Source: an uncultured Elusimicrobia bacterium (lineage in GTDB: Bacteria > Elusimicrobiota > Elusimicrobia > 2-01-FULL-59-12). From it: a stretch of DNA of 64,000 nucleotides. The stretch is from assembly GCA_963702895.1 (NCBI GenBank), contig OY969767.1, forward strand, positions 1,760,001-1,824,000. Direction: 5' to 3'. Made by a program: the position numbers and the translations under genes. Positions 52,516-54,243 of this stretch are shown piece by piece. Position 1 is the first letter of the stretch; each line of letters begins with the position of its first letter. The notes beneath the pieces are model-generated. The model saw only the letters and a list, made by a program, of their open reading frames with translations. It had not been told where the DNA came from and ran no database searches.

Positions 52516-52998
52516 TTAGCCCAACAGTTCCGGATGCTGCGAGAGGCGCTCCGTGAGCGTTTCGAGCATCTGCGCAGACGTTGTATCTGACGTTGGGAAG
52601 AGCGTCTGATACTCGGCCTGGAAGAAGCGAACCATCTGAGGACGCGTTGTTTCTGTAGCCCCTAGAAGAGAGGCGAGCGTGTCCACATATTCGCCTTGAC
52701 CGGAAGCCATTTCCAGTCGTAGGGAGTCAAAATTCACATCGACATAGACTTCTGTCGCTCGCACAATTTTGACAGCACCGTCTTGCGTGCAGCCTGATGT
52801 ACCGGAGCTGATACCAAATGTTTGATTGCCAAAAGTACCATTGGTAGTGGCTCCTAATACTTGCATGACTTTGTCGTTTTCCTTACTACCAAGCAGGATA
52901 TACCCTAATCCGCATCCGGCCATCGGATGATTGCCAGCCGCCAGCGCCAGGCTTGGGACAAGACCTGCAAGAACTACAAGTGCGATAATCTTCTTCAT
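52516..52998 (-). CDS. DUF3015 family exported protein
   Basis: AGCGLG, ATTNGTFGNQTFGISSGTSGC, MASGQGE; start at MKKIIAL. Confidence 0.85.
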   Translation of the reverse strand: MKKIIALVVLAGLVPSLALAAGNHPMAGCGLGYILLGSKENDKVMQVLGATTNGTFGNQTFGISSGTSGCTQDGAVKIVRATEVYVDVNFDSLRLEMASGQGEYVDTLASLLGATETTRPQMVRFFQAEYQTLFPTSDTTSAQMLETLTERLSQHPELLG

Positions 52999-53081: not shown

Positions 53082-53201
53082 AAGGGTCGCACTCCCGGGG
53101 CAGGACTCGGGCGCCACACATCAGGCGCCCGCCCGACCGTCGTGTGTCGGGCGAACCTGCAACCCTGCGAGGATGTTCTTCAATGCACGTCGGCCATTGC
53201 C
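53082..53201 (-). repeat. Direct repeat copy 1 (GIY-YIG 3' end, tRNA-Asn 3' fragment with double hairpin, trailer)
   Basis: 120 nt matching 53394-53513 with one mismatch (53120 vs 53432). Confidence 0.9.
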
Positions 53202-53381
53202 GCTTTTTAGATACTTTTCACGTTTAAGCGCTTCGTGAAGAGTCGGCCAGGGTTCCTTGAAGACCAACTGATAGGTGCGCTTGTTAGTCTTGTGTTCTGC
53301 TAATCGACGAATAAGATCTTCGGTTAAACCAGTATAGAGCTTGCCCGTTTTCTGACACCGAAGGATATAGATCCAGTACAT
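53121..53381 (-). CDS. Small GIY-YIG nuclease (86 aa), copy 1
   Basis: MYWIYILRC..LYTG.TEDL.RRL.EH..ALKREKYLKSGNGR; ATG at 53381. Confidence 0.88.
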   Translation of the reverse strand: MYWIYILRCQKTGKLYTGLTEDLIRRLAEHKTNKRTYQLVFKEPWPTLHEALKREKYLKSGNGRRALKNILAGLQVRPTHDGRAGA

Positions 53382-53393
53382 TTCAAAACACTG

Positions 53394-53513
53394 AAGGGTC
53401 GCACTCCCGGGGCAGGACTCGGGCGCCACACGTCAGGCGCCCGCCCGACCGTCGTGTGTCGGGCGAACCTGCAACCCTGCGAGGATGTTCTTCAATGCAC
53501 GTCGGCCATTGCC
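53394..53513 (-). repeat. Direct repeat copy 2 (GIY-YIG 3' end, tRNA-Asn 3' fragment with double hairpin, trailer)
   Basis: Matches 53082-53201 at a 312-nt offset. Confidence 0.9.
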
Positions 53514-53693
53514 AGACTTTAGATACGCTTCTCGGCGCTGTGCTTCGGATTTGCTCGTACGAGCTTCCTTGTGGACTAACTCGTAGTATGGCTTCTTGAC
53601 TCTATGTTCGGCAAGACGTCGGTCTAAGTTTTCGGCGAAACCGACATACAACTTGTGAGTACCTTTACACCGAAGAATATAAACCCAGTACAT
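53433..53693 (-). CDS. Small GIY-YIG nuclease (86 aa), copy 2
   Basis: MYWVYILRC..LYVG..NL.RRL.EH..AQRREAYLKSGNGR. Confidence 0.88.
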   Translation of the reverse strand: MYWVYILRCKGTHKLYVGFAENLDRRLAEHRVKKPYYELVHKEARTSKSEAQRREAYLKSGNGRRALKNILAGLQVRPTHDGRAGA

Positions 53694-53724
53694 TCCTAGA
53701 GTGTCTAGAGAGTAAAGGGTCGCA

Positions 53725-53796
53725 CTCCCGGGGCAGGACTCGAACCTGCAACCCTCCCGTTAACAGCGGGATGCTCCACCATTGAGCTACCCGGGA
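53725..53796 (-). tRNA. tRNA-Asn (GTT), no encoded CCA
   Basis: TCCCGGG TA GCTC AATGGTG GAGC A TCCCG CTGTTAA CGGGA GGGTT GCAGG TTCGAGT CCTGC CCCGGGA G folds as a full cloverleaf. Confidence 0.95.
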
Positions 53797-53823
53797 GTGC
53801 GACCCTCATTGTCATTCTATCTT

Positions 53824-54018
53824 GGCAGGACTCGGGCGCCACACTACAGGCGCCCGCCCGCCTGTTGTCTGGCGGGCGAACCTGCAACCCTCCCGTTAAC
53901 AGCGGGATGCTCCACCATTGTCCGCCACTACGACTATGGCGGATCCGCCGAAGCCGCAGTGGCGGAAGCTCCGCCACACTTCAGGCGGATGCGCCTGCCT
54001 TGTGGCGCATACCCGGGA
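53824..54018 (-). pseudogene. Interrupted tRNA-Asn copy carrying three double-hairpin insertions and lacking most of the 3' acceptor strand
   Basis: Removing 53834-53877, 53921-53966 and 53970-54009 restores sequence identical to the intact tRNA from its 5' end through the T-stem. Confidence 0.9.
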
Positions 54019-54243
54019 GTGCGACCCTCAAAGTCATTCTATCTTGGCAGGACTCGGGCGCCAGGCGCTAACCCGTTAGGCTATGATTGTATCTTGGCTT
54101 TTAAGCTTTGAGGGGTGATTGTAGAAAAAATGTTGATTTCTCCACAAAAACCGGGGGCCCATAAATCATGGAGGCCTATTGGGAGTGGGAATTTAGCCTC
54201 TTGGTCTATAGCAAGCACGAGGAAGATAAGACATAAACATGGT

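Follow-up and report, generated by a model that had tools for sequence, protein, structure and literature searches.

Putative GIY-YIG nuclease genes in partial tRNA duplications of an Elusimicrobia bacterium end at stop codons taken from neighbouring sequence

Two genes encoding putative 86-aa GIY-YIG nucleases were identified 3' of the tRNA-Asn gene in a 64,000-nt stretch of the genome of an uncultured Elusimicrobia bacterium (contig OY969767.1; here called the window). Both end at a TGA located in the loop of a hairpin that is inserted in a partial copy of the tRNA. These genes probably belong to a family of selfish mini-cassettes that reside in partial tRNA duplications, borrow a stop codon opportunistically, are then filtered, and carry a C-terminal tail without function. 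The borrowed stop is opportunistic and filtered and does not represent a designed lock. Such a tRNA-nesting GIY-YIG gene family appears to be undescribed; the borrowed stop itself has precedents (IS870, IS1239, and REPs). The locus contains the following features:

53824..54028, minus strand: dead upstream tRNA-Asn copy with no nuclease gene
53724..53797, minus strand: intact tRNA-Asn(GTT), found by ARAGORN
53433..53693, minus strand: ORF A, gene for an 86-aa single-domain GIY-YIG nuclease as assigned by Pfam; predicted folded part, residues 1 to 75
53465..53478, minus strand: 5' part of stub A, comprising variable loop, T-stem, and GTTC (tRNA positions 43 to 56), read as G73 to V76
53421..53464, minus strand: twin hairpin insert (22 + 22 nt) inside the T-loop of stub A; TGA of ORF A at 53433-53435
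53395..53420, minus strand: 3' part of stub A, comprising the remaining T-arm, the acceptor strand, and a 9-nt trailer; copy of the intact tRNA
53121..53381, minus strand: ORF B, gene for an 86-aa putative GIY-YIG nuclease, with ATG at 53381; 71% identical to ORF A
53153..53166, minus strand: 5' part of stub B, with the same sequence as that of stub A
53109..53152, minus strand: twin hairpin insert in stub B; TGA of ORF B at 53121-53123
53083..53108, minus strand: 3' part of stub B and trailer
52516..52998, minus strand: DUF3015 gene, downstream flank

The tRNA-Asn(GTT) is the only ARAGORN find of its kind in the genome (a relaxed setting gave 13,607 noise matches, which were discarded), and tRNA was the sole Rfam match at the locus; across 20 other loci, Rfam identified tmRNA and Flavo-1 and nothing else. 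On the minus strand, the intact tRNA is followed on its 3' side by two 312-nt units, each made up of a GIY-YIG gene, the copied tRNA 3' end, and a short trailer. In the dead upstream copy, the D-arm region holds four hairpins (53920-54008) and the T-loop a twin hairpin (53834-53877). The 3' stub looks like the attR of an integrative element at a tRNA 3' end. However, an integrase would be expected between attL and attR of such an element, whereas the only Pfam match between the duplicated tRNA ends was GIY-YIG, with no integrase. None of the sequencing runs screened for the locus had more than 8% of the query words. The acceptor stem of the tRNA-Asn is lengthened by 10 perfectly paired flanking bases, which gives a 17-bp stem (window 53707-53806); the paired flanks are shorter in relatives.

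As judged by sequence, ORFs A and B qualify as GIY-YIG superfamily members: they match PF01541 over the cut-off (40.6 and 40.8 bits versus 22.6; E of ~3e-10) and have the catalytic Tyr, Arg, His, and Glu. In an alignment of 95 rows, Y5, H30, and E55 were invariant, and Y16, G18, and R26 were conserved in at least 90%. The TIGR01453 score (22 bits) was far under the 56-bit cut-off. By sequence, the closest solved structures are those of structure-specific nucleases, UPF0213/YhbQ (1zg2; E of 1e-14) and Slx1 (E of 2e-6). In a Foldseek fold comparison, 1zg2 was again the closest (E of 1.6e-3), and the ORF model retrieved nothing at an E value of ≤0.001. A protein search for homologs gave four candidates, three of which were genuine. 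In the AlphaFold model, pLDDT is at least 90 over 60 residues and below 50 at residues 77 to 80 and 84 to 86; a confident domain extends through residue 75 and is followed by a low-confidence tail. The C-terminal tail is predicted to be disordered, and the folded domain of the model would finish about where the tRNA-derived sequence starts.

The tRNA-matching sequence starts at ORF nucleotide 216, the third base of codon 72 (tRNA position 43), and neither ORF has a stop upstream of it. The initial annotation had proposed that the peptide GLQV(R) is read from the variable loop and T-arm. This was confirmed for G73 to V76, which the variable loop and T-stem encode. Codon 77 (R77) is a hybrid, with the 44-nt insert starting at ORF nucleotide 230. 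This insert forms two hairpins of 22 nt, with 7-bp stems and 8-nt loops (z score of -4.3; 0 of 200 shuffles were as good), and both TGA codons occupy loop positions 1 to 3 of the second one, in agreement with their earlier assignment to this loop. When the insert is skipped, both reading frames close after 88 aa, and therefore the hairpin trims the protein by two residues and is no rescue. ORF B lies in the same frame as ORF A at a distance of 312 nt, and ORF A minus its TGA would gain 103 codons and pass through ORF B.

The two tails are identical, as first noted, but they represent one copied tract. The DNA of ORFs A and B differs at 71 positions in the first 180 nt (61% identity; of 35 shared residues, 15 have synonymous differences) and nowhere in nucleotides 181 to 261; beyond these, there is one difference at nucleotide 262, and the next is only at nucleotide 301. 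The identity spans the last 30 aa, 16 of which are gene body. As the identical DNA begins at nucleotide 181 and includes the gene body, the tails are a single recently copied or converted tract (n = 1), the result of one event, not two. A convergent origin was ruled out by the identical DNA. We infer that recombination homogenized the 3' ends.

The orthologous locus was compared in 11 genomes of the family, 9 of which have the full tRNA-Asn locus. A GIY-YIG gene is present behind the tRNA-Asn in two of the nine (the window genome, G000, and G007), and in three (G005, G009, and G010) the site is empty, with the DUF3015 gene directly behind the tRNA. Because of this distribution, we regard the window genes as insertions, judging from the compared sequences. 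The tRNA-Asn site of G007 has the same layout as the window, with the junction 2 nt later in the tRNA, another frame, and another tail, and the gene stops at a TAG at loop position 3 of hairpin 2. A DNA pattern consisting of the gene end, T-loop, and hairpin matched in 9 of 401 genomes, of which G000 and G007 are apparently real. The other seven were judged to be chance matches from the matched text and control counts.

Twin hairpins recur throughout the genome (one count gave 97), and 41 of the 97 are within 400 nt of a tRNA, a zone covering ~1.5% of the genome; the other 56 are farther off. Among 110 standard twins of the genome, 11 have TGA at loop positions 1 to 3 of hairpin 2 (both window twins counted), and another 11 have TAG at loop position 3. 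Twin-hairpin-plugged stubs with no nuclease gene were found 16 times, at seven other tRNA genes (among the 22 rows listed). In the gene-less stubs, 4 to 18 nt of tRNA match precede GTTC, compared with 6 to 10 nt in the five gene-bearing stubs. An ORF with known DNA that reaches hairpin 2 of a T-loop twin exists at two independent loci (G000 and G007), both with an in-frame loop stop. With a chance of ~10% for each, this leaves room for a tighter link between gene and hairpin.

The closest relatives were identified in a quick tree of 177 rows, which excluded short and broken-core rows, had an inverted-repeat group (described below) thinned to 12, and left 89 of its 173 forks open. ORFs A and B are inside a 13-row clade (SH-aLRT, 98), the endings of which were classed by eye: (i) the stop is in the hairpin loop in three rows (A, B, and G007); (ii) a TAG in the stub T-stem, ahead of the hairpin, ends two (L201 and L215); (iii) the stop straddles the junction in one (L004); (iv) it lies 0 to 2 nt before the tRNA 5' end or a 5' stub in four (L002, L119, L200, and L204); and (v) three have a stop in their own sequence (L199, L205, and L206). 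Of these, L199 lies behind a tRNA-Asn and has no stub. The claim that the cassette has no stop codon of its own is thus valid for ORFs A and B but not for relatives such as L199 and L206. The further proposal that the stop ties gene, tRNA fragment, and hairpin into one obligate unit was not supported: relatives stop in their own sequence, in the stub, or in another frame, plugged stubs exist elsewhere with no gene, the frames close at 88 aa with no insert, and the tail is predicted to be unstructured. Since the stops of relatives come from many different places, the tail is an incidental result of where the gene landed. A conserved functional tail was rejected, as the tails vary among relatives and the window tail is predicted to be unstructured. 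For P0002, known from protein only, the tail can be read as a further T-arm and twin hairpin, and it ends at the expected place of loop 2. In the quick tree, the UPF0213-like homologs of these genomes form a separate branch, mostly with no tRNA duplications.

A wider survey covered 208 distinct genes chosen by their likeness to the window protein, kin included; one contributing search supplied the best 150 of 291 matches, of which ~90 were taken, and the GNG search patterns bias the sample. In this sample, 95 genes, including 6 of the UPF0213-like branch, are no more than 350 nt from a tRNA or tmRNA on the same strand, and two layouts recur. In one, the gene precedes an intact tRNA and a 5' stub lies upstream; in the other, it follows the intact tRNA and has a 3' stub downstream. 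Automatic classing of the 95 genes placed 52 stops ahead of the junction, 21 inside the intact tRNA, 2 past it, and 20 in duplicated sequence; 43 are accordingly in or past tRNA or duplicated sequence. Frequent borrowed stops include TAG at tRNA positions 8 to 10 and stops in the D-loop. The GIY-YIG ORFs L027 and L063 run through a whole intact tRNA gene. The expectation that homologs would have tails encoded by other tRNAs was borne out, as their tails are commonly translations of other tRNAs or tmRNA. The same C-terminal peptide in homologs at non-tRNA loci would have spoken against the tRNA origin of the tails; the window tail words were absent from all 206 other distinct genes sampled. For annotation, the tails of tRNA-nested GIY-YIG proteins should not be taken for conserved motifs. 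The tRNA-side family is present in Elusimicrobiota, Patescibacteria, Bacteroidota, Omnitrophota, and other phyla.

The automatic junction calls contain errors, and of the 45 rows that read into the tRNA or its copy, 8 were excluded (three with the stop on the junction, one at a contig end, and four with false junctions, mostly tandem gene copies), which left 37 curated genes. In these, the junction is at a median of 13.7 codons past the K of the K[ST]G motif. The borrowed stop marks the 3' edge of the element, whose own DNA ends ~14 codons past K[ST]G. The frame used is the one with the earliest stop in 26 of the 37 genes, the middle one in 9, and the latest in 2 (median of 15 nt versus 78.5 nt). 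With one gene per layout and tRNA type, the earliest-stop frame is used in 13 of 18 (P of 9e-4 against one-third), a significance overstated by kinship and sampling. The frame bias may reflect a fixed insertion geometry instead of selection.

The cassette consists of one GIY-YIG domain of 75 to 85 aa nested in a partial tRNA duplication that leaves one tRNA intact. The DNA of the gene itself ends at about the last helix, often short of a stop, and translation would continue into the neighbouring sequence, which here is a duplicated tRNA 3' stub plugged by the genome-wide twin hairpin. Insertions would persist mainly where the frame used meets an early stop, and the filter may be selection against long tails. 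The substrate of the nuclease may be DNA that is single stranded or extruded, cut just 5' of the T-arm or hairpins, and copying during repair may generate the stubs; by analogy, a cut 5' of a hairpin, as by Ssn, or one in the T-loop, as by SegB, would fit. A single process for gene-bearing and gene-less stubs fits their similar matches before GTTC. More tentatively, and with some doubt on our part, the GIY-YIG domain could be the mobilizing enzyme of a minimal tRNA-targeted system, which would recognize T-arm-like hairpins, cut 6 to 10 nt 5' of GTTC, and produce tRNA duplications, plugs, and gene copies through repair. The twin-hairpin plugs would then be non-autonomous partners, and stop-less gene copies would survive if the landing frame had a near stop. 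In the closest relatives, the gene joins the tRNA 6 to 10 nt before the T-loop GTTC, near the starts of the gene-less stubs, and the junctions thus give a predicted cut site and substrate for a putative nuclease family beside tRNA genes. Cleavage at the junction by this enzyme, if it occurs, would account for the tRNA debris with hairpin plugs found in these genomes and would place a very small nuclease guided by structure beside Ssn.

Other explanations were considered less probable. The gene, stub, and twin hairpin might travel together, with the hairpin stop as a built-in part of the element. The in-frame loop-2 stop in both the window and G007, despite their different frames, the similar ending of P0002, and the long extension through ORF B that the TGA prevents would agree with this. 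However, the stop is in another place in 10 of the 13 closest relatives, among them L199 and L206, which weaken the case, gene-less plugged stubs exist, and a stop at 88 aa is available with no insert. In addition, the stub always matches the local tRNA and was therefore made on site, and we consider joint travel improbable. The nuclease could also be the passenger of a duplication made by another enzyme: hairpins would invade tRNA loops by some other route, the host would duplicate the tRNA, and a GIY-YIG gene would be captured. Most plugged stubs of this genome have no adjoining gene, and more than half of the twin hairpins (56 of 97) are far from tRNAs, as such a bystander role would predict. 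It is nevertheless unlikely, as the captured gene is of one family over a wide span of phyla and tRNA types, no tRNA adjoins any of the 19 genes in the NTS-flanked sister clade, and the junction position is steady relative to the protein.

Programmed read-through, in which a leaky or recoded hairpin-loop TGA would yield an A-B tandem nuclease, is very improbable. ORFs A and B are in frame, as are the genes of the tandem pair in G030 (321 nt apart), but one in three pairs is expected to be in frame by chance, and the tandem pairs L127 and L126 are out of frame (340 and 319 nt, respectively). ORF B also carries the same TGA with no fusion partner. Read-through as a design was rejected on the out-of-frame pairs and on the partnerless TGA of ORF B. 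The opportunistic borrowing of stops from the landing site remains our preferred reading.

In its apparent mode of working, the cassette resembles several known systems, SegB or Ssn above all, and it seems to belong to none of them. SegB is a longer, multi-domain protein with a DNA-binding domain behind the nuclease domain. According to the accessible text of PMC13096335, SegB of phages T4 and T6 is a free-standing GIY-YIG homing endonuclease that adjoins tRNA genes of many types, cleaves inside them at the reported motif RAWTSGAAC, and drives tandem repeats of tRNA plus C-terminally cut segB. By our reading, this motif corresponds to the reverse complement of the T-loop consensus. The window family likewise consists of free-standing GIY-YIG genes beside tRNA genes. 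However, SegB is a phage enzyme acting on dsDNA, and that accessible text (PMC13096335) reports no hairpin repeats, whereas the window gene is chromosomal, is known from its sequence, is predicted to have a single 75-residue domain with a disordered tail, and is accompanied by twin hairpins.

Ssn (cd10448) is a ~90-aa single-domain GIY-YIG nuclease associated with NTS/SRM hairpins that are repeated genome-wide; its ssDNA cut falls a few bases 5' of the hairpin, its authors proposed an IS-like origin, and tRNA is unmentioned in the main text of that paper as accessible (PMC11893778). The window family shares both the single-domain GIY-YIG protein and the genome-wide hairpin repeat. The NTS motif had no match within the window at three mismatches, and an SRM-like pattern flanks 11 of 19 sister-clade genes but 0 of the 95 tRNA-adjacent genes. 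In the quick tree, a branch with a support of 99 divides the window proteins from this SRM-flanked clade, taken as Ssn. Membership in Ssn was judged improbable on these grounds, namely, the lack of NTS in the window and the position of the proteins outside the NTS-flanked clade of the quick tree. Two Ssn-like genes with flanking NTS-like CGTC hairpins are present elsewhere in this genome (G000:C1:543345-543620 and 554285-554560).

Stop codons supplied by the target are reported in the accessible text of PMC13630536 for IS870, ISMt1, IS1547, IS1110, and IS1239, and relaxed selection is reported there for the IS1239 tail. As in the IS870/IS1239 type, the window genes and about half of their tRNA-adjacent relatives are mobile ORFs with no stop of their own and a site-dependent C terminus. 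As far as the accessible text describes them, however, those elements have transposases, terminal inverted repeats, and short target repeats, whereas the window has an 86-aa putative GIY-YIG nuclease and a long, plugged tRNA duplication, and no inverted repeats bracket either window gene besides the tRNA acceptor-stem arms. REP/REPIN elements are short, often paired palindromes linked to tyrosine transposases, and their ends give stops to flanking ORFs; "GIY" is absent from the main text as accessible (PMC3733652). The stop is at the palindrome ends in these elements, whereas in the window it is in a hairpin loop and the repeat is inside tRNA loops. In the accessible literature on small GIY-YIG proteins, tRNA, and repeats, no published account of a tRNA-nested mini GIY-YIG cassette was found.

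Some related arrangements were also observed. Seven further short GIY-YIG-like matches were found in this genome. A GIY-YIG gene with an internal TGA (G000:C1:580611-580880) lies between tRNA-Ile and tRNA-Ala, and its frame closes at the TAG at positions 8 to 10 of tRNA-Ala. Two others (G000:C1:1700934-1701170 and 205875-206130) are upstream of tRNA-Ala and tRNA-Gln, respectively, each behind a hairpin-bearing 5' stub and with a stop before the tRNA. In other genomes, the 3' end of tmRNA has the GIY-YIG/stub layout (L129 and L144), and a tRNA-Asn-like gene behind a GIY-YIG gene is split after the anticodon by an apparent intron (L048). In a related group of GIY-YIG genes (L133 to L198, mostly Bacteroidota, and L044, L049, and L060), which end in ..TG, terminal inverted repeats bracket the gene, the stop coincides with the outer end of the right repeat, and an inverted copy was found upstream in 35 of 41. 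None of this group is tRNA adjacent, several split other genes (integrase-like by eye), and gene-less copies of the group's ends are present at L039.
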